A DNA stretch of 64,000 bases from Fistulifera solaris (taxonomy: Eukaryota). The notes beneath the pieces are model-generated. The model saw only the letters and a program-made list of their open reading frames with translations, made no database searches and had not been told where the DNA came from. Shown one piece after another: positions 12,406 to 46,165 of the stretch. Every line of letters begins with the position of its first letter. Within the stretch, counting starts at the first letter, position 1. The position numbers and the translations under genes are program-made. The stretch is from contig AP026123.1 in the NCBI GenBank assembly GCA_030295235.1, positions 1,488,001 to 1,552,000 on the forward strand, written 5' to 3'.

Positions 12406-13439
12406 CGCAATTTTCGGAACGAACACAGAAGTTCTACATGAAAAATGCTCCGTATGCATAATTTCTGAAAACTACACTGAATTTCTGAATGAGAATTATT
12501 ACGGAGTAGAGTATAATTCTCGTTTCCATTCTAGCGTCGCAGCTGCTTGTTGCTTTGATCATAGAATCATACATCATAGAGTCCGAATTTCGAAAAGGCT
12601 ACTAGTCCATTCCGCATCATTTCTGGAAGAAGACCCGTCCTCGTAAGCCTATTACCATGTAACCTTACAAGTATCCGTCCGTAGTGGTGACAAGCAGTCT
12701 CGACTCTTGACTTGATGATCAATACTACGGAGTAGCTATTACCTGTTACCTGTTAACCTATAGGTTTAAATTTTAAACTTGAGCCAGCTACTGATCGTGA
12801 AAGGCATTTTGTCCGGTTTGGTACAGGTGGGACGTTATGAAGTTTACAAATTACAAAAGACCTTGTCCATCAAGAAGAGAAGTCGAAATCGGACACGAGA
12901 CACGAGACACGAGACTTGCTAAATAATTGCCGCTTGCAAGCAATTAAGGACTTTGCCAATTTCACATGCGACACGCATCCTAAGATCAGATCCTCATGCA
13001 TTCGAATTCGCCCTTGTGTTGAGTTTTACTGCAGTTTCTCATTACAATGATAATGTTGGCGTCGAGACCCTATGCCACAGTCTATTGGTAGAGAGAATAA
13101 TATGCTCAGATCAGTAACCATGCTATGAAGCATTGAACGGAGGCAAGAGTTTGTAATGTTGCCATTCAGTCGATAAGAAAATAGATCCCGACCAGCTTCT
13201 CAACTTTCTAATTATTTCTGATACCCGGCTTTCATTCCGCTGAAGCGGCTAATAATAAAATCTCTTTATCAAATAATCACCTCATAAAGATCTTTTAGAA
13301 AAACCTGGAAGAAGCAACAGAATGATAGATTGCGGACAAATGCCAGTTGTACCAGGTACAGAAGGTTTCGAGCATCTCCGCTCCGGTATGAAAAAGTGGC
13401 TTTTGAACAAAAATAACGCGCAACGAATCATAGAACAAT

Positions 13440-13443
13440 AAAA
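13440..13443 (-). terminator. putative Pol III T4 terminator of the permuted tRNA
   Basis: TTTT on the minus strand, 8 nt after the end of the 5' half (trailer TCTGAATC-TTTT). Confidence 0.55.
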
Positions 13444-13451
13444 GATTCAGA

Positions 13452-13533
13452 CCGTAGTCAGGCGCCTTACCATTGGGCCAACGGGAATGTTCGACGATTT
13501 CCCGCCCGGGATTCGAACCCGGAATCTCCTGAT
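13452..13533 (-). tRNA. circularly permuted tRNA-Arg(ACG): 3' half 13533-13498, 10-nt spacer 13497-13488, 5' half 13487-13452
   Basis: Minus strand reads ATCAGGAGATTCCGGGTTCGAATCCCGGGCGGGAAA-tcgtcgaaca-TTCCCGTTGGCCCAATGGTAAGGCGCCTGACTACGG. The swapped halves give a 72-nt cloverleaf: acceptor TTCCCGT/GCGGGAA, D stem GCC/GGC, anticodon stem CCTGA/TCAGG with loop CT-ACG-GA, T stem CCGGG/CCCGG with loop TTCGAAT. Confidence 0.92.
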
Positions 13534-13570
13534 ACACTAACTGAACGCTGTCGATAACAGGAGCAATTGG

Positions 13571-13578
13571 TTATATAA
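13571..13578 (-). promoter_or_regulatory. TATA-like box upstream of the permuted tRNA
   Basis: TTATATAA lies ~38 nt upstream of the 3' half on the minus strand. Confidence 0.5.
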
Positions 13579-15173: not shown

Positions 15174-18100
15174 ATGGCGTCGTTTGCACCTACCAAGGTA
15201 CGTCATTTCGAGACGAATTCTCATTCGACGCGAACGAAGACACGGTAGCGAATCTCACAACATTCTTTTTCTTGAATCAGGCCAAAATGGAGGCCGAAGG
15301 CATCTCTCCTTCGGCTATTTCGGCTTTCGAATCGACTTTTAACTCGCTCGTATCAGGAAATACTGGTTTGATTCCCGAAGACACCATCTCACCGGCGCCG
15401 GACCTCGACAACGCCGAAGACTTCTCGAAAAGTATTACGGTCGATCCCGCCTTGCTCAAGGAAACCGTCGTACTCAAGCTCAATGGAGGTCTCGGTACCG
15501 GCATGGGTCTGGACAAGGCGAAATCGTTGCTCAAAGTCAAAGGCGACGATACTTTCTTGGACTTGACGGCCAAACAGGTCATGCAAATGCGCGAGGAATA
15601 CGGAATGAAGGTCAAGTTCATGCTCATGAACTCTTTTTCGACATCTCAAGATACTTTGGACTTTTTGAAAACCAAGTATCCGGGTCTGGCGTCCGAGGAA
15701 GGCCTCGAAATGATGCAAAACAAGGTCCCCAAATTGAATGCGGATACGCTCGAGGTACGTACGTTCGACATGAATCTCCGTCGTATACGTTTGACTCACA
15801 CTTCTCTATTCTTCTTCTCAGCCCGCCGTGTGTGAAACGGACCCCGACAACGAGTGGTGTCCTCCGGGTCATGGTGATTTGTATGCGGCCTTGGTCGGCT
15901 CTGGATGCTTGGACAGTTTGCTGGCCAGTGGCTTCAAGTACATGTTCGTGTCCAACTCGGACAACTTGGGGGCGGTCTTGGACTTGGCCATCTTGACCTA
16001 CTTTGCTCAAAAGGGTTCTTCGTTTATGATGGAGTGCTGTGAACGGACCGAAAACGACAAGAAGGGTGGCCATTTGGCCGTTCGCAAGGCGGATGGTCAG
16101 TTGGTGCTGCGCGAATCGGCCATGTGTGCCGACGAAGACGAAGAAGCCTTCCAGGACATTACCAAGCATCGATTTTTCAATACCAACAATCTGTGGATCC
16201 GCTTGGATATTTTGGAAGCAAATTATTGACAAGAACGGTGGCTTCATTCCGTTGCCGATGATTAAGAACAAGAAGACTGTCGACCCCAAAGATGATTCCT
16301 CGCAAGCGGTCTTTCAGTTGGAAACAGCCATGGGAGCTGCTATTGAATGCTTCGATGGCGCCACGGCCATTGTGGTGCCTCGTACACGTTTCGCGCCCGT
16401 GAAGAAATGCAGTGATTTGCTCCTTCTACGAAGTGATGCGTACACTTTGGTGGATCACAAGCCCGTTTTGAATCCGGCGTGTGGCGAAGCAGCTCCGATT
16501 ATCGACCTCGACAGCAAGGCGTACAAGCTAGTTGGTGCGCTCGAGGAAGCAACTGCGGGCGGCGTTCCGTCTTTGGTAAATTGCAAGCGTCTCAAAATCA
16601 AGGGAAAAGTTCGCATGTCGTCAAAAACGAAATTCATTGGTGACGTCGCCATCACCAACAGCAGCTCGGAGAGCAAATTCGTTCCCACGGGTGAGGTCAC
16701 CGGAAGTCACGACTTGACCGCCGCTGTCGGCATGGGTAAATTGTGCCCTACTATTGTCTCGACGGCGCCTATCGATGGACAAAAGCCGGGTACTTCCGGT
16801 CTTCGCAAGAAGGTCAAGGAATTCATGCAAGAGAATTACCTCGAAAATTTTGTCCAGTCGACGTTTGATGCTGTGAAAGCTAGTGGAACGGACGTTACCA
16901 AGGGATCTTTGGTCATTGGTGGAGATGGTCGCTACTTCAACGACCAAGCCATTCAGACGATCATCAAAATGGGTGTTGCGAACGGTGTCAAGCGCTTCTG
17001 GATCGGACAAGATGGTCTCTTGTCGACTCCTGCCGTTTCAGCTGTTATTCGAGAACGCGGACCGGGCTGGCAGTCGGCTTTCGGGGCATTTATTTTAACG
17101 GCCAGTCACAATCCCGGTGGACCAGACGAAGATTTCGGTATCAAGTACAACTGCGAGCACGGCCAGCCGGCACCGGAAAAGGTTACGGATGAAATTTATG
17201 CCAACACATGCACTATCAAGTCTTACAAGATTTGCAAGGACTTTCCTACAATCGATGTGTCCATTCCGGGTATCACCAATGTCAAGGCAGATGATGGAAG
17301 CAGCGAGGTCAATGTGGAAGTGATCAGCGCTACCGACAACCATGTTGAGTTGCTCAAATCGATCTTTGATTTTCCTGCGATCAAAGCGCTTCTCGACCGA
17401 AAGGACTTTACGATGGTGTACGATACCATGTACGGTGTGAACGGTCCATACGCAAAGAAGGTTTTCGTTGAAGAGCTTGGGCAGCCTGAAGAGATTTGCA
17501 TGAACGCTACTCCCAAGGATGACTTCAATGGTGGTCACGCCGACCCTAACCTCACCTACGCTAAGGAACTAGTGGCAAAGATGGGACTTGACCGCAACGG
17601 AATGAAAATTGATGTCCCTGCAGGAAGTGCGATTCCGGATTTTGGGGCTGCCGCTGATGGGGATGGCGACCGAAACATGATTCTGGGCAAGCAGTTTTTC
17701 GTCAGTCCTTCTGACTCGCTAGCTGTCATTGTCGCAAATGCTGATGCTATCCCATTCTTCCGCACTCAGGGTGGACTAAAAGGTGTCGCCCGTTCGATGC
17801 CTACTTCCGGGGCAGTTGACCTTGTTGCTAAAGATCTGAACTATAGTCTTTTCGAGACACCGACAGGTTGGAAATACTTTGGCAATCTGATGGATTCGAA
17901 GGAATTGTTTGGAGGCGAGGACTACACGCCGTTCATTTGCGGTGAAGAATCCTTCGGTACAGGATCGAATCACGTTCGTGAAAAGGACGGAATTTGGGCT
18001 GTTTTAGCATGGCTGCAGATTCTAGCGGTGGCCAATCCAGACGCCTCTCAACCACTAACTACAGTCGAGGATATCGTTACCGCTCATTGGCGAAAATATG

Positions 18101-18504
18101 GACGAAACTACTACTCCCGCTGGGATTTTGAGGGAGTTGATAAGGTCAAGGCGACTGCGATGATTGACAAGATGCGTTCGGATGCTGAAGCTAACACCGG
18201 AAAGACTGTCGGAAAGTACAAAATTGCCAAGGCAGACGACTTTACGTATGTTGATCCTGTTGATGGAAGTGTTTCGAAGAATCAAGGCATTCGATTCCTC
18301 ATGGAAGATGGATCTCGCATCATCTTCCGTTTGTCTGGCACAGCCGGTTCCGGTGCCACTGTTCGTATGTACATCGAGCAGTATGAACCGGAAAAGATCG
18401 ACATGGTTGCTTCCGAGGCGCTGAGTGATTTGATTCGTATCGCCTTGGACCTTTGCGACATTAAAGGGTTCGTCGGTACCGAGGAACCTACTGTCATTAC
18501 TTAA
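15174..18504 (+). CDS. UGP/PGM: fused UDP-glucose pyrophosphorylase / phosphoglucomutase
   Basis: UGPase motifs LKLNGGLGTGMG, WCPPGHGD, VSNSDNLGA and LETAMGAAI, followed by PGM motifs GQKPGTSGLRKK, TASHNPGG, DGDGDRN, CGEESFG and FRLSGT. Introns 15198-15280 and 15755-15821; frameshift near 16215. Confidence 0.95.
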
Positions 18505-32500: not shown

Positions 32501-35500
32501 AAAACGCAAATCAGATATTGAAAAATGGTAGCATAACGATGAGCTTGTTCTTACGATAGCAGTTCCGGACGTCGCGAGTCAGCCCAATGAAATGGTAAAG
32601 CATCACCAGGAGGTATTTCAACAGAAGAGGTGTCTGAAGAACCCATTTGTTTAACTTCGAATCTGATAGATTTTGATTGATTAATCAGAAGAAAGCGCGA
32701 TGTGATAGTGAGTGATTTGGAAAGCTCACCCCAGGGTCCTTCAAGCGGGTGAATTGCATAGCAAAGTTCAAAGACTGAAGAGGAACACGAGACAGGCTGC
32801 ACTTTACTTTCCACTATCGTCTGTTCAGGCCAGCGGGACGCCCGTGCACGCATGGCGCCAAAAATCCTTCCAGAAATATTAGGTATATCAGAAGTAAGTG
32901 CCCATCGACCACCATTTACTTGAATGCCTAATTTCGCATTAGTAAAGTTTGATTTCCCTTCTTTTGTATTAACATCGGATAGATTTCGTCTCGGTTGATA
33001 ATACCCGTGGACTCCGGGCACGTGCATTTCGGTGTTACGAAATCCGCTACGTTTTCGGAACCACCGTCGTCGACGAAATCGATGAGTAACATTAAAGGTT
33101 CTAGTGCCGACAAAGTCGTTTAGATCTGCAAACGACTCAAACCCATCATCTGATAGACTACCTGCGTAGTCAATTTGCTGTACGCCTCCCGTCAGAAAAC
33201 GATTGGACTCCCAAACAATAAATATATAATTGAAACGTACCCAATCTTTATCCTTCCAAAACCACTTGGCAGTATCGACGCACGGGTCTATTTCTCGGGG
33301 ATCATTAACTTTGTTATTTGGGTTTTCCGTCGCCCACCACCTGGTCTCGCCTTCATTCATTAGGTCAACATACTCAAAAAACTCCTCTACTACGAATGGA
33401 ACGGTTTGCCCTGCAATACGGGTAATATCAGCAACTAAACCGCTTGAATTTTTAAGCCTTTTCATTTCGACGCCGCTATCGAAGAGTAATGATATTTCCC
33501 TCAAAGCAGCCTCGGCTGCTGATAATTCATCCTCTACTAAGTCCTGTTTTGCTTCATTATCGAAACTCGAAGTAGCCTCCCACGGGTAACCAAATGCAAT
33601 GTCCAGCGATGTGCAATTTGTCAGCCATAGCTCAGCGAACAGCGCGACTTCTAAACCACACTCCTTTTTTATTATTCGCAAGGATAAATCATGAGGGACT
33701 CCAAACGAATCTTTTAGGTGAACATAGCGAACTGACTGGCCTTCGCTGTTGTCCGATGTACCTTCGATTATTGGGTGTTGTAAGGAGTCCAAGGTTTTCT
33801 GCTCGTCCAAAGAAATAGAGACATGATCGGACCAATGAGCAAATCCAGACGGGCGGAAGCGAGCGGTGATTCCCACAGTTGATCTAGCAAAGATCTCAAT
33901 CTTCTCACCGCTTTCCAGAGGAACCGGTTTTCCAGAGTGTTCCTGGGCACGTGATATTGATCCATCGAAAGCGGCGCTTTCGGGATCACTACTTCCCATT
34001 CTATGCACACCGGTAAAAGGTTTCGCAACGATACGGAACTGTCAATGGTAAGAGTAAGTATACCGTCTCGCTTGACAGTTCCCACCGAAAGCCAACCAGA
34101 CGGTGACACGCCTCCTTCGTGTAAACATTTTAAGGTCCTATTCGAATGAGAGCTGAAATCCAAACCGTCTTCTGCGGACGAACGGACTAGAATTGTATAG
34201 CTGTATTCTTCAGATGTTCTTATACCGCAAACCCAGGTCCCATTTGTCATATCTAGCCAGACGGGGAGATAGAAATACGACTTTGGGTACACCATACCCA
34301 CTGCCTTCATGTCGACTTCCTCTGTATGAGGCCGATCAGCGGTCGAAAAAGAGAAAAGCTACTTCAACAGGTTCGCGAAGAAGCGAAAGTATTCGAATAG
34401 AACTTCCGAGTGTTATGATTGTTTTCTCTTCTACGAGCTCTACACACCAGGAGAGCATCTGGTGGCCTTCCGTGGGACGTCGGCTCCCAGAAGAGTTCTG
34501 GTCATTTGCTGTGTGGAAGCGAATCGGAAGAAGCATTTCTACTGGTCCTTCAATCTCCTGGCCAGTCAAAGGCTCGACGACTATTCCCGCAACAGTCTGC
34601 AGGGAAACTAACTCAATTGGAATTTTCGCAACTGGAGAAATATCTTCGTCCTGTACGTCATTTGTTTCAACTCGAAATAATATGTCCTGACCATTTCCCA
34701 CCATATGGATCACGGACGGATCGTAGCTTTCGAGTCCGCTGAACTCACCCACAGACAGAAATGGGGCTTCAGTGGGATTTTGGTACTCCGTTTTGACATG
34801 CTGTCTTTGCCGCACAAAGGCGGCGGAGAGGCCAGTCCGATTCCGAAAGATAAAAGGTCTGGTTGACCCATGCTTCTGCTTCCGGGCGTAGACGAGCGCA
34901 GCGGTAGCGGCGCTGCGAACGTTCTTCACCTGATCGCCTTCCTTTTCAGTGTGGAGGGCTTCATCTTGGTCTTCTATAGATTCGAACGACTGGGTAAAAT
35001 TCAATGCATAGGTGCTCCATGATAAAAACTTGCTGATAGCCTCAGCTGCAGCGCTGGTAATATTGATTGCTAGCCCATCATCACTGTCACTGAATTCCAG
35101 CGTTAATTGTCTTGTATTCTCTCTGTCATCTCGAAAGTCAGCAGAAAAAAGCATCCGTCCTTGCTCAAAAAGCGGTTCCCAACACCAGATCCGAAAGTTA
35201 TAGTAATCCACACCGATAGACGCCGAAATAGAAAGACGTATGAATTTCTCCTCTTTTCATCTACCTTACAAGCTAAGCGCGAAGAAGAAATTTCAGCTTT
35301 TAGCAAAGGAAAGTCTCGCTCAACAAGCGAAAGGACTGCGGACGAAAAGTTCACGTCGAATGTTGAATTGCGGTCAACAACGGTGTCGGGTACTAGTAAG
35401 ACTTCTTCAGAGACCGCTTTCCGTCTAGCTAAAGTCAATGTGATGGGCCTCTCAAGAATCAAAATCTGATTGACGAAGCCAAGAAAGTCTCCATCGTTGT

Positions 35501-38500: not shown

Positions 38501-41500
38501 AATTCATGTAAGCATGCAAGTCTCTTTTAATACGAAGAACAACATCAATTCCAATCAGCATTTCAGAAAACGATATTCTTGTTGTGAGCTTGCTTATTGA
38601 AACCTTGTCGGAATGCATGGGACAAGAGCATTGTTTTTGACGGTCGCATTTGTTGGAAGTGGCAGTAAGGGACCATGGCTCTATTAGGGAAGTCATTTGA
38701 AAGCTGCTATTTCGCGCCAACCCCATTTGGACTTTGTCAATGACATACTTCCTCCGTACTGATCCGTCGTTGGATGCGTGCGTAAAATCGATGAGATGAA
38801 TCAGAATTTTTGCTGCAGCTTCGTAGTCGCCCAACAAAATCTGTGATTCTTTCACAGTAAGTGCGAACGTATGAGTAGCCGACACTGGAACGTTGCTTGT
38901 GCAAGGGAAGCACATTGATTCTGCTTGCATGGGAAGCCAACTCATCCTACTGTCCACTTGAAGTTCGTCCTGTTTTGGTGGCCCCCACCTATTTTATACC
39001 ACCTATCGCCTATCTGGATTACTTCGTTAGGTGAAAGAACTGTCGGCTCTGGCAAAACATGAAGAAATTCGATAAATGCCGGAAGGCCGATATATCGGCG
39101 TGTATTCGAGGGTTCTCGACGACCAAGGTACGACTTGTGTTGGCTGACTTAGTAGTAATTGAAGAATAGGAAATTCTGGACCAACATTGGTTGGCGCCAC
39201 TTAACAGCGTTCGAGGACCAGAACGTGTTTCGACGGCAACTTGCAAGGAACAGTGAAGAAGCTGTTGGCTGATGCGATCTGCATTCTTCGTGAAATTCCA
39301 ATCAAATCCAGAAAGAATAAAAACTGAGTATTCTTCAAAATAATCATTACGAGCCAAAAGCTTGACCTGGGGAACCGAAAGGGTCACGTCGAATGTGGTG
39401 GGAGACAAGTCCTTCTGGTCGTATCCGAACTTGACAAGAAGACTAGCAAGGTAGCTCTGTAACGCTGACGGCGTTAATGATTGTAAAGCTACCCATTCTT
39501 CCATATTTCTGGATTCTTCTCCTATATTAGAAGATATTACATGCCGAAAAAGAGCGAAATCTTCTTTTCGTATAGCGAGTTCAAGGCTGTCGAATGAACA
39601 TTTGACGCACCACTTCGGAAAATTCACACTGGCTGTTCTCCCTGCAGGCCAGCTGATGTTGACGAGTCCGTCGGGTGCTTCATCCTCTCCGCAAATGATA
39701 CTTCCGTCCGGATTCGATAAGAGAATGTTCCTTGAAGAGACAGACACATTATTGAACCATTGCATGAGAGGTCCACGAGTAAGATGATGATTTTCCGAAG
39801 TACGCATGGGCCCACATTCAAAGCGATTTCGAATCCAGAGCTCGTCGCTCTCAAAACGGATAAAGTCGGTTGAACAGCAGGAAACAGGAATCAGGATGGT
39901 TGGGGACTCAACGTATATTGCGAATGCATTCACACCAAATTTCTCTATCGCGTCAGTGGCTTCCTCTTCGAGCTGCGCTGGGTCGAAGGGCTGGGGTCTT
40001 GTCGCTCCCCACACTTCGTATCCCACGACGCCTTCAAAAAAGTAGTCGATTATTTCCAGCCACAGCTGCTGTAGGTACACGAATTTCATTGGACTCAGAT
40101 TAGCTTCGATCTTCGAATCATAACCGTAAAGATTCCCTTTGGGGATATCCACCAATACACAGTCTTCGACAATCCCATCGTGTTTGTCTGATGTCGAAAG
40201 GTATTTCCGAAGTCTCGGGTTTTTAGAAATATTTAACTCAAACAAAGAAGTAGGCTTTGATTTACTTGCATCCGTCTTCAATCCAATGAGTTCTCTGTAC
40301 AAAGTCTTATTGTCGAAACTTTCTGGATCTGTAAGGGAAAAATTCTCAAACACTGCCTTGATATGGTAGCCACCCTTCGGCTTTCTTTGATAATTCACAC
40401 GGCAGTGCTCCATTTCAACGGCGAAAAGACGACGGTGACGTACTTCCTTGTTAAAATTAATTCTCAACCTTTTTATCTCAAAGGTGACCAGAATTGGATT
40501 ACTACCCGCGGGCTGAGAGGCTTCAACATTTCGAGAGACATCAACGTCTGATAGTAAAGCAACTTTCGGGTTCTTACTCAACGGAGCCAAAAGTAGGCCG
40601 CGAGGACTCCCGAGAAAGGGTAACGATCTGAATTGAGGCGTTCCCGTGTCGTCTTCGGTCGTCAAGTCCATTGACGACGACACCACGGATTCACTGATCT
40701 CGGATACCATGAACGTGTCGACGCTGCTATATGAAACCACAGACTCCGCGTCGACGAAATCGTCTTCATCTGCGTCGAAATAAAAGGACGAGTCAACTTC
40801 AAACCTCGCGCCGTCCAAATCACCATGAGAACCTTGCATTGCCTTGTTTATTATTCCGATACTGTCTGGATTCCATTCGATGAAGAGCTCGTGAAATTTA
40901 ACGATGAGGTAATTGGTCATTTCGGAACGACCTTGGCCGCTATTCGATAGCTCTGTGCCATACTGGACCGAAACAAGATCCGAAGATCGACCCGAGTGGG
41001 TCAGCTTAGATCGGTCTGCCTGTACAAGTGTTGGATCAATAGAGGCAATCATCAAGGAGAAATCGTTACCTGCTCGTTGGTACAAGTCTCTCATGGTGAG
41101 CCGATGCAATGACATGTTGGAAGTAAGTATGGTCCCTCTCGAAAGGGTTTCCGAAACGAATGAAACTTTTATCTCTGTCAAGTTTAAGTCGAAAAGAGGG
41201 ATTGAAGATGCCTCTGCTTTTCCACCAAATTTTCCGGTATCCTTTTCCACGTAAAGTTGAAGCAGAGGAACCTCAAACTCGAAAATGACCTTTTGATAGG
41301 TTGAAGATGGTTTGGAATGCAGACCACCTACTGGATTCACTTTAATTTTGATCGAAGAACCAGCACCCCATGTCGGACTCATTTCTTGTCGCCGAGCATG
41401 CCACTGCTGACAAAGGCTGCGAAAAAGTCCAATCGTACACGAACTCAAATTGAATGCGAGTCGAGGAAGCTCGGCGAAAATCTTTATTTGAGTTTGATCC

Positions 41501-44085
41501 AAGCTTCCTTTAGAGGCCATGTTTTCGATTTTAAAACTAACCCCGAATGGCTCAATAATGGAGCCCATCGAGCGCTTAATGCAATCTTCCCGGGTTGTCA
41601 ATGCCAGGCCCAAAAGTTCTCGATAATTATTCACTGAGCAACGCAACACTTGTATTTGAGACAAGTCAAGTTTCCAATATTGATCGACTCGCTCGCTATC
41701 CATTGGGTTGAATGCCTCCGTTACGGTTGTAAATTTGAGACGACCAAGGTCAATAACGACCATTAGACTGCAGTCGGCGGAACTTTCTGGGAAGAGGACG
41801 TTTGGCCCCGCCAAATCAAGATCCACCGAAAAATCATGCTCCTTGTGGATCATTGCTAAATAAAGACGTTTTTGCTTTTCGTTTTTCCATTTTCTCAACT
41901 GCACAAGTGTATGATGATAGTCATCTTTAAAATCAAGGTTTGCTGTTTGGAAGATTCTTGTTAAAGCTTCAACAGGTTTCGTGACGTAAACAATTTCCAG
42001 GGGATGAACCCGCACCACAACCGAAGTTTTGGAAGCGAAGCTCATTGATTGTTGTTTTGTGTAAGCTCTCTGTATTCGGACTGCAATAGTTTCCTTGAAG
42101 AATTTGTTGTTTATTTCAAAGCCGTGCCTGTGCTCGGCATCTTCAAATTTGGTCCTTGAGCTCACAAGATGAGGGAGGGCTTTACTTTGATCGGAAGAAG
42201 TGAAGACCATACAATCTTCAACTATCAGATCGCCCACAAGGTTACTAATGCTCCATGATCCATCGCAGAAAACTTCTAGCTCTTGTAACAAAGCGAAAGA
42301 GAGACGCACCACCGGCTGACGTTTCCTGCATCTATACCTATGGTCATCGATACGCAGACTGAACTCCGCGCATTTCATTGATGTCGTACAGACTGGCTTA
42401 AACTCCCCGTTGGCGCTTGACGAAATTTCTTTTGATGAATTTTCGCGGTAAAGGAGCTCGGCCATTTCGATGAAGGCACTTTTTCTGTGTTGAAGTGAAA
42501 GCACGTCTTCTGCCAGTAAAGATGTCCTTAAATTCCGGTCAAACTTCAACATATCTCCTGATAATATAAGCGATTTGTCACGGGTCCCTCGTAGAGCCTC
42601 GTATGTATGAATGCGGAAGGCCACGATTTCGGCAACAGTGAGTTCAGCTTCAAGTCTCGTGAGTTCAAAATGACAGTCCAGCTGGACTTCCTCTTTCTCC
42701 AAGAAACATATTTTGATAAAAAGTTCTGTACAATTTTCGCTTTCCAAGAATTTGAGCTACTCCAAGCCATCCACGCCGCCGTTTCCGCATAATAGCAGAT
42801 GTTCGTTGGTCCTTGCCTTGCGAGTCAAACGCGACTACAACCTGCAACGCGTAATGCCACCATTGTCGAGGACTCAATAACGGCGACTGAGTTGGTCTCA
42901 GTTCGCTGAGTTTTGCCAAAGTCTTTTTCATTGATAAACTCTGATTGAAATCATTCCAAACTGTAAGAGACTTCCTCAAGTATCCAAGATCTTCTAGAAG
43001 GCTTCGTGAAAGTATGATTTGGCACGGTGGAAAGTAAACGTCAATCGTTGAGCAGCGTGGTGGAGAAGCGTCCGCAGGCGATCCAGAAACAGCTTCAGAC
43101 ATGGTTGTTTCCGAAGACAAGGCGATCTGAATCGAGGGTGAAAAAGGGTCGAGAAGGTACGTATGTCGGGACTGAAAAGTGCTCTTTTCCGAGTCCGACA
43201 TGAATGACGCAGGTAGTGCTCCTTCCTCTAGACGCCGAAATGCTTCACGATAAAATAAATCTGGACTTGCCATAATGCCGCGAGCAGTGCGGGTTTTCAG
43301 ATCCGAAGCTAGTATACAGCTGCTATCCCAGTATGCAGCCAAATCCTTGAATGCCACAACTCGATCACGTGTCGAGCTCGAAGGGTCTTTGCTCGCGGAA
43401 TGAACCATGAACTCACGCAGTACTACACCGACTGAAAAGAAGGACGGTAACGAAACGGTGGGTTGTTCGAACCCAGATTCCTTGCAAAACCCAGACAATC
43501 CCCGGGATCTTCGTATCGGACATGAACGTTTCGCACGGTGACGACTAAGTTGGATAAAATTTCCGCCACTCGTTCGTGGATCCATACAGCCAAAAAAGAC
43601 TCTTTTGCTGCTGGTATTGACGCTGAAGCAGCCCGTTTCAATAAATGTTTGTTGAGAGCGGCTTGCACCGCTTCCTCTAATTTTCGTTGTTTCTCTTCAA
43701 GGGAAGCATCCTCTAACTCCTTGGATCCAGTCTCGTCCGAATCATCAGTCCTGGCTTCCTTTCTCGGCGTCACGAGGATTTGAATGTCGGAAAGAACCAC
43801 CGTGCATTGCAGGTCGTCGTCTAGTGACGACTCGCTCGTACGCCATCGTAACCTGGACCGCAGGAATTTCCAGGGTATCCGAATCTCCAAGTTCCCAATT
43901 CTTCCGTAGCATAAATGAATCGGACAATCAGTGACCCAATGATCTAAAGCATCACGACGCAAGGCCAAGTCATTTAATACGAGCTCTCCATTCCATGCGG
44001 ACAAGCGTATTCTATCTTTGTCGAATCCATCAATCAAGTGGCCGAAATGCGTTGTCAAGACGTCTGTCAGGTATCGTTCAAACAT
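29543..44085 (-). CDS. VPS13: VPS13-family lipid-transfer protein (multi-exon, frameshifted in this assembly)
   Basis: Chorein-N start (MFERYL..FG..I.GFDKDRIRLSAWNGELVLNDL), P..SPRQWWHYA, FFAT-like YFDADEDDFVDAE, VAB-like repeats (RNRTG, RNLLPV, FRIENCS) and ATG2-C-like GVTGVVKAPIRGAERKGLEGFAKGIGKG..RPRR. Successive minus-strand ORFs linked by short introns and frameshifts. Confidence 0.92.
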
Positions 44086-44647
44086 CGCTCGGTCTTATTA
44101 TTATCAGTAAGCGTTTCGATTCCAGCGCAAGTTGTAAATGCGTGTTCTTATAACATTCTTTCATTACAAGAACCTGGTAAGTTATGGAGAAACTCGTCTT
44201 TCAATGACATCAACATACTCCGTGCGATCGCATTCATCGCAGCAACCGCATGGCGGAAACGAATGAATGAGGTGCGACAGCGGTTACTGTAACGGTGGTG
44301 AAAGATTATGTAAAATACGTCATATTACACGTTGACGTAATAAATAAATCGCACTACTACATAAATGACTTTACTCGAATACCGGACTCTGGCTCCTCGA
44401 CCACCACCCATCAATATCAATTTGCCCATCGCAACGAAACAACCCATTTCTCGCTTGCTCAGACTTCTATGAATGGTCGCTGTTTCTTCCGTTCTATTCA
44501 ATACAACAGCCAGGCTTTGAACCACTCTAGAAAAAAGCAAAAAGAAAGGCGCTTCGTCTCTAAAGTCTTGGACCGGAAATGCCAGCTCGCAAGATATTCG
44601 ACCTACGATACAAAGGGTTGATTTTCCTTGTTGTGTTGCTTTTCGAA

Positions 44648-46165
44648 ATGCTCGGGCTTCAGTTCCGAATAGCTCGGTGTACCCGGGTATCTGCCTTTCA
44701 TATCCGCCCAAGGTCTTCATTTATTTCCCGTGTAACGCGCTCGAATACACTGCGCTACCTTGCCACACGCTCTTACACAATTTCTGCCCCAAATCAATCG
44801 CACAACGAACAAATTTTGAAAAACGACGAGTTACTAAATTGGCGAAATCATCCTGCTTTGAACATTTCAATTTCATTTCCGACTTGGATAATACCGGTTG
44901 CAGGCAAGGGAATCCAGAAACTCTTAAGCGAACCACTACTACAACCTTACTTGGCAACTCGCCTCGATATCTTGGAACACACGCATCAACGGCTGAAAGT
45001 CGTTCAAGACTACCACACAGATGGCCAAAATCGAAATACGACTCATAAAGTTGTTCTTTTGCATCCAGATACCCCTTCTCAAGAGCACCTTCCCTTGGAA
45101 GTGCAGCAATTGATGCGCGATTACAAAGTCGACTCTCCCGGCCCCTTGATTCCTGTTTCATTCAATTACAAACAATTTACTGCATCCTACGTCTTAACAA
45201 AGCTTCTGCCACCGGAAGCGCACCCTCCACCAACTTCCTTTGAGACCATCGGACATGTGGCACATTTGAATTTACGGGAAAATCACCTTCCTTACAAACG
45301 ACTGATAGGAGAAGTCTTGTTGGAGACGCTGCCGACGATTGAAACAGTCATACACAAAGTGGGAGAAGTCACGGGACCGTTTCGGACGTACGATTTTTCG
45401 GTCTTGGCGGGTCGCCCGGACACGGCCGTCAAAGTGACCGAAAGTGGTATTCAAATGCATTTTGACGTGGCAGAAGTCTATTGGTCGGCACGCTTATCAG
45501 AGGAACGGCAACGCATTTTGAAGTATGAGATTCAGCCAGGAGACTATATAGCTGACGCATTTTGTGGAGTGGGAGCTATTTGTCTTATGGCTGCTGCACA
45601 GCTCAATTGCACAATTTCGGCCAATGACTGGAACCCGAAAGCAGTGGAATATCTGAAGGCGAACACTGTGTTGAATGGGGTGGAGCAAAACTTCAAGAAG
45701 CTATCCTGCACTGACGCTTACGACTTTCTAATGGACCTCGGTCTCGCGGATGATAAGAAAGAGACCAGGCTTCCCGATCATGTTTTGCTCAATTTTCCAT
45801 TGGAAGCCCCGCGATTTTTGGGAGCACTTCGTTGGTGGCCCGTCAAAAGTCCATCGAATTTGAAACGGAGCGACAAGGCTGAAAAGGATGAAACGCACCG
45901 TACCCCACGTGTGCACGTGTATACGTTTGCCCGTGCGGACCCCGAAACCAATCGGAGCGCCGAGGACGTAGCAGTAGATTCAATTGCTTCCAATCTGCTT
46001 CCCATGGGAGATTCGACTTATCGTAAAGATGAACTTAACAATGATTACGGGTGTAAGGTCAATGTTCATGACGTAAGAGATGTAGCGCCTGGAAAGGTTG
46101 TCATGTGCGTCAGTTTCAGCGCGACACCAAGACTGCTACGGTGTATGCAAGGGGATTTTTCCTAG
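44648..46165 (+). CDS. TRM5: tRNA (guanine-37-N1)-methyltransferase, Trm5/Met-10 family, probably organelle-targeted
   Basis: PTSFETIGHVAHLNLR, IGEVLL, FRTY..VLAG, VYWSARLSEER, DAFCGVG, ANDWNP and VHVYTF motifs. R/S-rich N-terminal extension. Confidence 0.9.
   Translation: MLGLQFRIARCTRVSAFHIRPRSSFISRVTRSNTLRYLATRSYTISAPNQSHNEQILKNDELLNWRNHPALNISISFPTWIIPVAGKGIQKLLSEPLLQPYLATRLDILEHTHQRLKVVQDYHTDGQNRNTTHKVVLLHPDTPSQEHLPLEVQQLMRDYKVDSPGPLIPVSFNYKQFTASYVLTKLLPPEAHPPPTSFETIGHVAHLNLRENHLPYKRLIGEVLLETLPTIETVIHKVGEVTGPFRTYDFSVLAGRPDTAVKVTESGIQMHFDVAEVYWSARLSEERQRILKYEIQPGDYIADAFCGVGAICLMAAAQLNCTISANDWNPKAVEYLKANTVLNGVEQNFKKLSCTDAYDFLMDLGLADDKKETRLPDHVLLNFPLEAPRFLGALRWWPVKSPSNLKRSDKAEKDETHRTPRVHVYTFARADPETNRSAEDVAVDSIASNLLPMGDSTYRKDELNNDYGCKVNVHDVRDVAPGKVVMCVSFSATPRLLRCMQGDFS

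Follow-up and report, generated by a model that had tools for sequence, protein, structure and literature searches.

A probable circularly permuted tRNA-Arg(ACG) gene in a diatom nuclear genome and the relaxed pairing of its leader and trailer

The stretch of contig AP026123.1 analyzed here, 64,000 nucleotides long and called the window below, carries on its minus strand, at positions 13533-13452, a circularly permuted tRNA-Arg(ACG) gene: the tRNA's 3' half comes first, a 10-nt linker follows, and the 5' half comes last, with the junction between tRNA positions 37 and 38 (a type II gene). With moderate confidence, and on the strength of sequence comparisons, we take it to be a functional nuclear gene of a raphid pennate diatom, the leader and trailer of which would form a relaxed, HBh'-like version of the bulge-helix-bulge (BHB) motif and not the strict one (B, bulge; H, central helix; h', outer helix). 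The recurrent complementarity of the flanks, the covariation of the acceptor stem, and the end of similarity among family members at the predicted cut sites argue together that the family is functional and that its ends are joined at 37/38. Gene anatomy, pairing potential, and recurrence in relatives were read directly and are described first.

ARAGORN found no tRNA in the 64-kb window as given, and no Rfam family reached its gathering threshold there. When positions 13487-13452 and 13533-13498 were rejoined by script, ARAGORN called a 72-nt tRNA-Arg(acg) with a complete cloverleaf: seven acceptor pairs (one of them G:U), a 3-bp D stem, 5-bp anticodon and T stems, and a 7-nt anticodon loop, CUACGGA. 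The 3' half (13498-13533, 36 nt) runs from A38 to the discriminator A73, which is directly followed by TCG in the DNA, so that no CCA is encoded. The linker TCGTCGAACA occupies 13488-13497, between A73 and U1, and the 5' half (13452-13487, also 36 nt) runs from U1 to G37, with the anticodon A34-C35-G36 at 13455-13453. Adding the next trailer base during rejoining gave an 8-nt loop that ARAGORN could not assign; G37|A38 is thus the only sensible junction. ARAGORN was also run on doubled 170-nt segments across the window and returned eight matches, seven of which were overlapping segments over the permuted gene. The eighth (1756-1925, again tRNA-Arg(acg), within an open reading frame (ORF) with HEAT repeats) was absent from the neighboring overlapping segments and was judged to be an artifact of the artificial join.

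A TATA-like box, TATATAA, read directly at 13571-13577 on the minus strand, ends 37 nt upstream of A38 and is presumably an RNA polymerase III (Pol III) promoter element; the leader is the 37 nt between the two. On the other side of the gene the trailer reads U-CUGAAU-C, followed by TTTT (13440-13443), a T-run that starts 9 nt past G37 and presumably terminates Pol III transcription. Permuted tRNA genes have been described with this layout of TATA box and T-stretch (PMC3978253), and the order of the halves, the cloverleaf obtained on rejoining, the TATA-like element with its T-stretch, and the absence of CCA together place this gene among those of type II.

Relatives were sought with a pattern that matches the permuted order only (a T-loop motif, 20-50 nt, and then a D-loop motif). 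Six loci were found in metagenomes, and four of them (L001, L003, L005, and L006) are the same permuted tRNA-Arg(ACG); L003 is near-identical to L001, leaving three independent environmental relatives. Both of the remaining metagenome loci, L002 and L004, were rejected as bacterial tandem tRNA arrays, and so were the two matches in prokaryote genomes, both of them tandem tRNA arrays of Planctomycetes; viral contigs gave no matches to the pattern. All four permuted loci rejoin to a 72-nt tRNA-Arg(acg), across linkers of 18 nt (L001 and L003), 6 nt (L005), and 4 nt (L006), and outside the acceptor stem their tRNA bodies are the same as that in the window. Within the acceptor stem, three of the seven pairs have changed on both sides and 97.1% of the cells are paired, and such covariation shows directly that selection acts on the stem, which closes over the linker. 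A run of four to six T lies within about 20 nt after G37 in all four loci (three independent), and TATA-like boxes in L001 and L005 end 52 and 39 nt upstream of A38. The nucleotide and translated similarity of the relatives to the window is limited to 13452-13534. Nothing is held in common outside these limits, and the relatives are thus not positional orthologues. Contigs of two sequencing runs also align to the gene, break off at 13452 and 13533/13534, and continue into unrelated sequence. Because both the similarity of the relatives and these contigs stop exactly there, the borders of conservation coincide with the predicted cut sites at G37 and A38.

The first-pass annotation of the window had proposed that leader and trailer pair into a BHB-like splice junction, and the letters and coordinates on which it relied are correct. 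Leader TTCAG (13545-13541) and trailer CTGAA (13450-13446) are exact complements, and the suggested one-pair extension, G13546:U13445, is present as a G:U pair. The resulting outer helix, h', thus consists of the leader strand GUUCAG (13541-13546; -13 to -8 relative to A38) and the trailer strand CUGAAU (13445-13450; +2 to +7 relative to G37). Inside it lies the leader segment U-UAG (13537-13540; -7 to -4), where TAG at 13539-13537 stands opposite C32 (13457), U33 (13456), and A34 (13455) and is able to pair with them one position off the canonical register, and where U13540 forms a mismatch with C35 (13454). As had been noted, two groups are left unpaired in this geometry: the 3-nt 5' bulge G36-G37|U (13453-13451), at which a predicted cut would free the 3' end of the 5' half, and the 4-nt 3' bulge UGU|A38 (13536-13533), at which a second predicted cut would free the 5' end of the 3' half.

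The strict motif, hBHBh', is defined by two 3-nt bulges around a 4-bp helix, with flanking helices of at least 2 bp (PMC3978253). The window possesses the 3-nt 5' bulge and a 6-bp h', but it departs from the definition in its central helix (3 bp plus the U/C mismatch) and its 4-nt 3' bulge, and it scores only 1 in the strictly canonical register by the measure given below. Relaxed motifs keep a subset of these elements, such as one 3-nt bulge together with the central helix and one flanking helix, and leave the cut sites unpaired. Several have been described: hBH for green-algal type II genes at 37/38, and hBHBh', hBH, HBh', and "no H" in Cyanidioschyzon merolae (PMC3978253; PMC3728597). An HBh'-like reading of the window takes a 3-bp H, with a probability of about zero in the nearest-neighbor model, G36-G37-U as B, and the 6-bp h'. 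HBh'-like would be the best description of this junction, which combines a weak, shifted H and a 3' bulge of 4 nt with a good h' and a 5' bulge of the canonical 3 nt. That such a geometry might point to a tolerant tRNA splicing endonuclease, as first suggested, is a reasonable conjecture.

Junctions were scored as the number of pairs opposite positions 32-35 plus the contiguous length of the outer helix, over six geometries (3' bulge of 3-4 nt, 5' bulge of 2-4 nt). In its best geometry (3' bulge 4, 5' bulge 3, H 3, h' 6) the window scores 9; a score of at least 9 was reached by 0.7% of 20,000 shuffles (p = 0.007) and at 593 of 127,778 natural positions (0.46%), the latter taken from both strands of the window at the same 82-nt spacing. 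Fisher's method applied to the natural-sequence frequencies of the window and its three independent relatives gave about 1e-5. Leaders and trailers were also swapped between loci: 11 of the 12 combinations scored below the cognate one, and the exception, L006 leader with L001 trailer, tied the L006 cognate score of 8. RNAduplex energies averaged -7.3 kcal/mol for cognate vs. -4.0 kcal/mol for non-cognate pairs, one non-cognate pair reaching -7.2 kcal/mol.

The argument that complementarity outside the mature sequence speaks for a functional gene has held up, in that such complementarity recurs in relatives whose flank sequences are different. The single feature common to all four independent flanks is an AG facing C32-U33, for which the window uses -5/-4 and the three relatives L001, L005, and L006 use -4/-3. 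In L001, leader GAGCAGAC and trailer GUCUGCUC make a perfect 8-bp Watson-Crick outer helix (9 bp with a G:U pair), which is set off from G37 by one base and from A38 by six, the canonical spacing of a 3-nt bulge, a 4-position center, and a 3-nt bulge. Two of the four central positions are paired (G-3:C32 and A-4:U33), and the score is 11 (shuffle p < 5e-5; natural-sequence frequency 0.0006). In L006, all four positions C32-C35 are paired by the leader GUAG, and UA|A38 remains as a 3-nt bulge of canonical size (score 8; shuffle p = 0.03). L006 thus provides a complete hBH and L001 a complete Bh'. Because the canonical 3-nt spacing is used in all three independent relatives, the 4-nt bulge appears to be peculiar to the copies of this organism and not a property of the family. 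Three further copies from one wetland metagenome were read by eye at contig ends; one has G at -3, and the other two have an AUG-type pairing to positions 33-35 with no partner for C32. The family appears to hold the ends of the permuted transcript beside the anticodon stem by varying mixes of central and outer helix, the sequences of which differ from copy to copy.

L006 also contains a second tRNA gene (L006:101-188, minus strand), an Arg(UCG) to judge from its loop CUUCGGA, which ends 7 nt upstream of the permuted A38 at L006:93. It scores 47 bits with the Rfam tRNA model (gathering score 29), and its T loop has 21 nt where the model has 5, so that some 16 nt would be inserted at a site that is not canonical. 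No clean T loop could be derived by removing the insert, and ARAGORN missed the gene. The two Arg tRNAs of L006 may form one dicistronic transcript, and the T-loop insert hints that the enzyme of that relative handles non-canonical sites.

The window itself is gene-dense and eukaryotic, with a GC content of 45-49% and Pfam matches to VPS13, synaptobrevin, tubulin cofactor E, zf-CW, and a TRM5/TYW2 methyltransferase. The host is, to judge from the matches of one protein described further below, a raphid pennate diatom; an atlas search also points to Bacillariophyta, and the atlas search made with tubulin cofactor E resolved no phylum. A search for sequencing runs containing this stretch listed none from RNA; the four runs used consist of contigs, apparently from DNA, and the best run covers genes and spacers evenly. 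In run X1, where 94% of the words sampled from the searched stretch are present, depth rises to about 93 over the tRNA (13454-13514) from 16 in the flanks. The contigs that cross the linker differ from each other in its letters, and one paralogue has a different T stem. This excess of depth, together with the variant linkers, means that the source genome holds several copies of the permuted tRNA-Arg(ACG) gene. A mismatch-free contig over 13492-13539 has a depth of about 50 vs. 16 in the flanks, or roughly three times as much, so that about three copies appear to share the last six letters of the leader. The leader of a further paralogue of the same organism, read by eye, ends in AGUGC and thus has its AG at -5/-4. 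The shifted register appears to be common to the copies of this organism.

Folding of positions 13560-13440 of the minus strand, which had been proposed as a check, gave a mixed outcome. The unconstrained minimum free energy structure contains the cloverleaf, closed across the linker, and the leader/trailer helix GUUCAG/CUGAAU, but its inner pairing differs from the central helix that had been suggested. The stability of the whole transcript is unremarkable (-37.6 kcal/mol, z = -0.96), as 29 of 200 shuffles folded equally well or better. With the cloverleaf fixed, the pair probability of the outer helix was 0.69-1.0 for each of three assumed start points; the cloverleaf alone has an energy of -26.6 kcal/mol, and the outer helix brings this to -31.9 kcal/mol, a contribution of -5.3 kcal/mol. 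The conformer of the first-pass annotation, in which the outer helix is joined by G-4:C32, A-5:U33, and U-6:A34, has an energy of -30.3 kcal/mol. The best fold is at -37.6 kcal/mol, about -2.2 kcal/mol of which comes from an upstream hairpin that is perhaps outside the transcript. The proposed junction therefore survives in part: its outer helix is real, whereas the central helix of C32-A34 with UAG has a predicted probability of about zero, and the conformer is not the best fold. Nearest-neighbor models are poor for helices of 3-4 bp between bulges, and the textbook 4-bp central helix of L006 is likewise outcompeted by a shifted pairing when a long leader is folded; for these reasons we read the low probability as a caution and not as a refutation. 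For the narrow claim about the junction, then, folding makes the outer helix credible, indeed solid, whereas a textbook-like central helix is no more than a possibility, one that the enzyme would need to select.

The transcription limits, cleavage, circularization, and use in translation of this tRNA are inferred, and the steps may be imagined as follows. By analogy with C. merolae, Pol III would begin transcription some 25-30 bp downstream of the TATATAA element and end it at the T-run, and the transcript would consist, in order, of leader, 3' half, 10-nt linker, 5' half, and trailer. The tRNA body would fold across the linker, and leader GUUCAG would pair with trailer CUGAAU, tethering both ends next to the anticodon stem; the leader AG would be able to pair with C32-U33, resembling the anticodon-intron pair of ordinary pre-tRNAs. 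The tRNA splicing endonuclease would then cut after G37 and before A38, and a ligase would join the cut ends into a circular RNA. RNase P and tRNase Z would remove the linker after circularization, and CCA would be added. In C. merolae this course of events has been shown experimentally, the terminal BHB being cut and ligated to give a circle that RNase P and tRNase Z open at the linker (PMC3978253); linkers of published permuted genes are 7-74 nt long (PMC3978253, Table 1). In the window copy a 7-nt anticodon loop requires a cut three bases after the G:C32 pair, not two.

Several observations weigh against the interpretation just given. In TATA-dependent Pol III genes, transcription begins some 30 nt from the first T of the TATA box. 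With this spacing, the 5' end of the transcript would lie near 13549-13546 and would barely include the leader strand of the outer helix; the presumed start position is the weakest link for this helix in the window, although the boxes of L001 and L005, which are 15 and 2-3 nt further upstream, allow comfortably long leaders. The unconstrained leader-trailer duplex is not significant in the window (-5.6 kcal/mol; shuffle p = 0.09) or in L005 (p = 0.20) and L006 (p = 0.28), and by this test L001 alone stands out (p = 0.003). The L005 junction is weak, consisting of G-3:C32, A-4:U33, and two or three outer pairs (score 4; shuffle p = 0.14), and in L006 the leader strand of the outer helix doubles as the 3' strand of the acceptor stem in the upstream tRNA, so that its pairing may be incidental; we did not count the L006 outer helix as independent evidence. 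There are only four independent pairs of flanks, and CUCAG is common to the leaders of L001 and L005, which may reflect common descent rather than selection. Within the junction of the window copy, the 3-bp central helix, with its probability of about zero, gives way to a non-BHB alternative favored by about 5-7 kcal/mol, in which a competing inner helix (U33:A38, A34:U-1, C35:G-2, and G36:U-3; probability about 0.82) buries the 3' cut site. Finally, if the endonuclease measured a constant distance from the central helix, its product would be expected to have one U too many and an anticodon loop of 8 nt.

The points concerning the outer helix lend themselves to a different explanation, in which the permuted tRNA is functional but the 6-bp helix of leader and trailer is incidental, the endonuclease measuring from the folded body and aided solely by the contact of AG with C32-U33. 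Such recognition would match ordinary eukaryotic pre-tRNAs and the hBH-type permuted genes of green algae. Eukaryotic enzymes are described as combining a ruler mechanism with the anticodon-intron pair (PMC4090602, PMC3978253), and h' is lacking from the hBH junctions given for green-algal type II genes (PMC3978253). An incidental helix would also be in keeping with its weakness or absence in L005, its overlap with the upstream tRNA in L006, the p value of 0.09 for the unconstrained duplex in the window, and a presumed transcription start at its very edge. On the other hand, the geometry-specific score of the window is found at just 0.46% of natural positions, the perfect helix of L001 stands in exact canonical register, and without such a helix the free ends of the permuted transcript would be held by the 5-bp anticodon stem alone. 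We therefore regard this explanation as unlikely on balance, but as one deserving serious attention.

A second alternative turns on the inner pairing. The window copy could be an impaired or decaying paralogue that is cut wrongly or poorly on account of its 4-nt 3' bulge and competing inner helix, with tRNA-Arg(ACG) being supplied by other permuted copies or by an unseen ordinary gene. The score of 1 in the canonical register, the preference for the alternative fold, the 8-nt loop that one extra U would produce, and the presence of several copies in the genome are all compatible with decay. However, the tRNA body is flawless and the same as that of the relatives outside an acceptor stem that is itself fully paired, the promoter and terminator are intact, about three copies appear to share the same last six leader letters, and the further paralogue with AGUGC keeps its AG at -5/-4. 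An impaired gene is thus, in our judgment, improbable. It is most improbable of all that the locus is no tRNA gene, whether because tRNA fragments came to lie together by chance or because a module resembling a tRNA belongs to a Y RNA-like or some other small RNA: the weak matches to the Rfam family YrlA (Y RNA-like, RF02553; window 24.8 bits, L001 29.4, L006 23.7) fall far under the gathering score of 69, the family is bacterial whereas the window is eukaryotic, the common order of T arm, acceptor, and D arm explains the match, and a full anticodon arm with an ACG anticodon, covariation in the acceptor stem, and an exact 72-nt cloverleaf would not be expected of a Y RNA. The YrlA matches span 13432-13544 (minus strand) in the window, L001:377-494, and L006:6-107, with the tRNA-like module inside an outer stem, and the YrlA model might act as an accidental screen for permuted tRNAs.

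If the gene is indeed a functional permuted tRNA gene, as we favor, its closest counterparts are the type II genes of C. merolae, namely Gln-CUG, Leu-CAG, Thr-CGU, Thr-AGU, and Gly-CCC (Soma et al. 2007, as given in PMC3978253), which have the same order of halves and the same 37/38 junction. They also share the TATA-like box, the T-stretch, the lack of CCA, and a predicted pairing of leader and trailer, with linkers of 7-31 nt vs. 10 nt here (PMC3978253). They differ in belonging to a red alga and not a diatom and in that their circular intermediate was shown experimentally (PMC3978253), that of the gene described here being predicted; the window copy, for its part, has a 3' bulge of 4 nt and a central helix of 3 bp whose register is shifted. 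The genes of the prasinophyte green algae Ostreococcus and Micromonas and of the Bigelowiella natans nucleomorph (Maruyama et al. 2010, as given in PMC3978253) are likewise of type II at 37/38 with relaxed hBH junctions, the exception being the O. tauri Ser(CGA) gene at 15/16; these junctions fit an ordinary eukaryotic endonuclease that reads the mature domain, and the linkers are 11-64 nt long (PMC3978253). Other isoacceptors are involved in those organisms, O. tauri having Arg(UCU) and not Arg(ACG), and their junctions are described as one 3-nt bulge and a 4-bp H, whereas the strong element in the window is the outer helix h' (PMC3978253).

Ordinary introns at 37/38 provide a further comparison, as G-3 facing C32 with a 3-nt bulge in L001, L005, and L006 is the layout of the anticodon-intron pair (PMC4090602, PMC3978253). 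The window differs in having its G at -4, which makes the bulge 4 nt long. The "intron" here would moreover consist of the joined trailer and leader, so that splicing would circularize the RNA and not join two exons. More distant are the permuted tRNA-iMet and tRNA-Tyr of Thermofilum pendens, in which the order is permuted in the same way and a leader-trailer BHB is the predicted processing signal; these are archaeal, with the junction at 59/60 in the T loop, a strict hBHBh' or "no H" motif, and an alpha2-beta2 endonuclease (PMC3978253).

In the accounts available to us, the only recorded hosts of permuted tRNA genes are one archaeon, one red alga, a few prasinophytes, the nucleomorph of a chlorarachniophyte, and Auxenochlorella, the last added by later papers; Arg(ACG) is absent from the 34 permuted genes tabulated in 2014 (PMC3978253). 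Full-text literature searches found no report of permuted tRNAs in diatoms, and none of the papers returned names permuted tRNAs together with diatoms or stramenopiles in its title or abstract. The authors of a 2022 study on tRNA-Arg in diatoms gathered their tRNAs by annotation, BLASTN, and tRNAscan-SE, and the words "permuted" and "ACG" do not occur in the main text (PMC8975779). The study gives C or U at position 20 of nuclear tRNA-Arg (PMC8975779), and the U20 that we read in the D loop of the ARAGORN cloverleaf is thus consistent with it. The locus would therefore belong to a known kind of gene, in a lineage for which we found no earlier report.

If diatoms have a permuted tRNA-Arg(ACG) family, a major and well-studied algal group would join the known hosts of such genes, and standard tRNA annotation of diatom genomes would be missing an essential isoacceptor, just as ARAGORN and Rfam return nothing for the window. 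Ranging from strict junctions (L006 and L001) to a weak one (L005) and a shifted one (the window copy), the family would also offer a natural series in which to ask what a eukaryotic splicing endonuclease needs: to measure with a ruler, to read an anticodon-intron pair, or to have the ends tied together by a helix. A broader proposal, which we offer tentatively and consider rather doubtful as it stands, is that raphid pennate diatoms and their uncultured relatives in several metagenomes make tRNA-Arg(ACG) only from permuted genes and that their endonuclease accepts junctions outside the textbook rules, such as a 4-nt 3' bulge, a central helix of 2-3 bp, or the T-loop insert of about 16 nt in the L006 tRNA-Arg(UCG). 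The tRNA in question is the decoder of CGU, CGC, and CGA. Were the proposal true, structure-driven tRNA processing like that of Cyanidioschyzon would exist in stramenopiles, and it would be explained why this isoacceptor is invisible to linear tRNA finders.

Some other features of the window may be mentioned. An ORF at 16093-18504 (plus strand) encodes the C-terminal part of a UDP-glucose pyrophosphorylase domain and a full phosphoglucomutase, and its product is 99% identical to a Fistulifera solaris protein. Its best 120 matches are taken up by homologues of about 850-1070 amino acids with the same set of domains, and this ORF, as delimited from ATG to stop, is probably part of a longer gene; the organism-named matches noted among those listed are all diatoms, mostly raphid pennate (Seminavis, Epithemia, Mayamaea, and Nitzschia). 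ORFs at 32551-33999 and 39019-42552 (minus strand) match the adaptor-binding, N-terminal, and middle regions of VPS13 and are probably exons of one very large VPS13-like gene. The 528-amino acid product of an ORF at 44579-46165 (plus strand) has a TYW2 N-terminal domain and a TRM5/TYW2 methyltransferase domain (Pfam E values of 1e-18 and 7e-17). Enzymes of this class modify G37 of tRNAs, and the ORF lies 31 kb from the G37-bearing tRNA described above, which is probably a coincidence.

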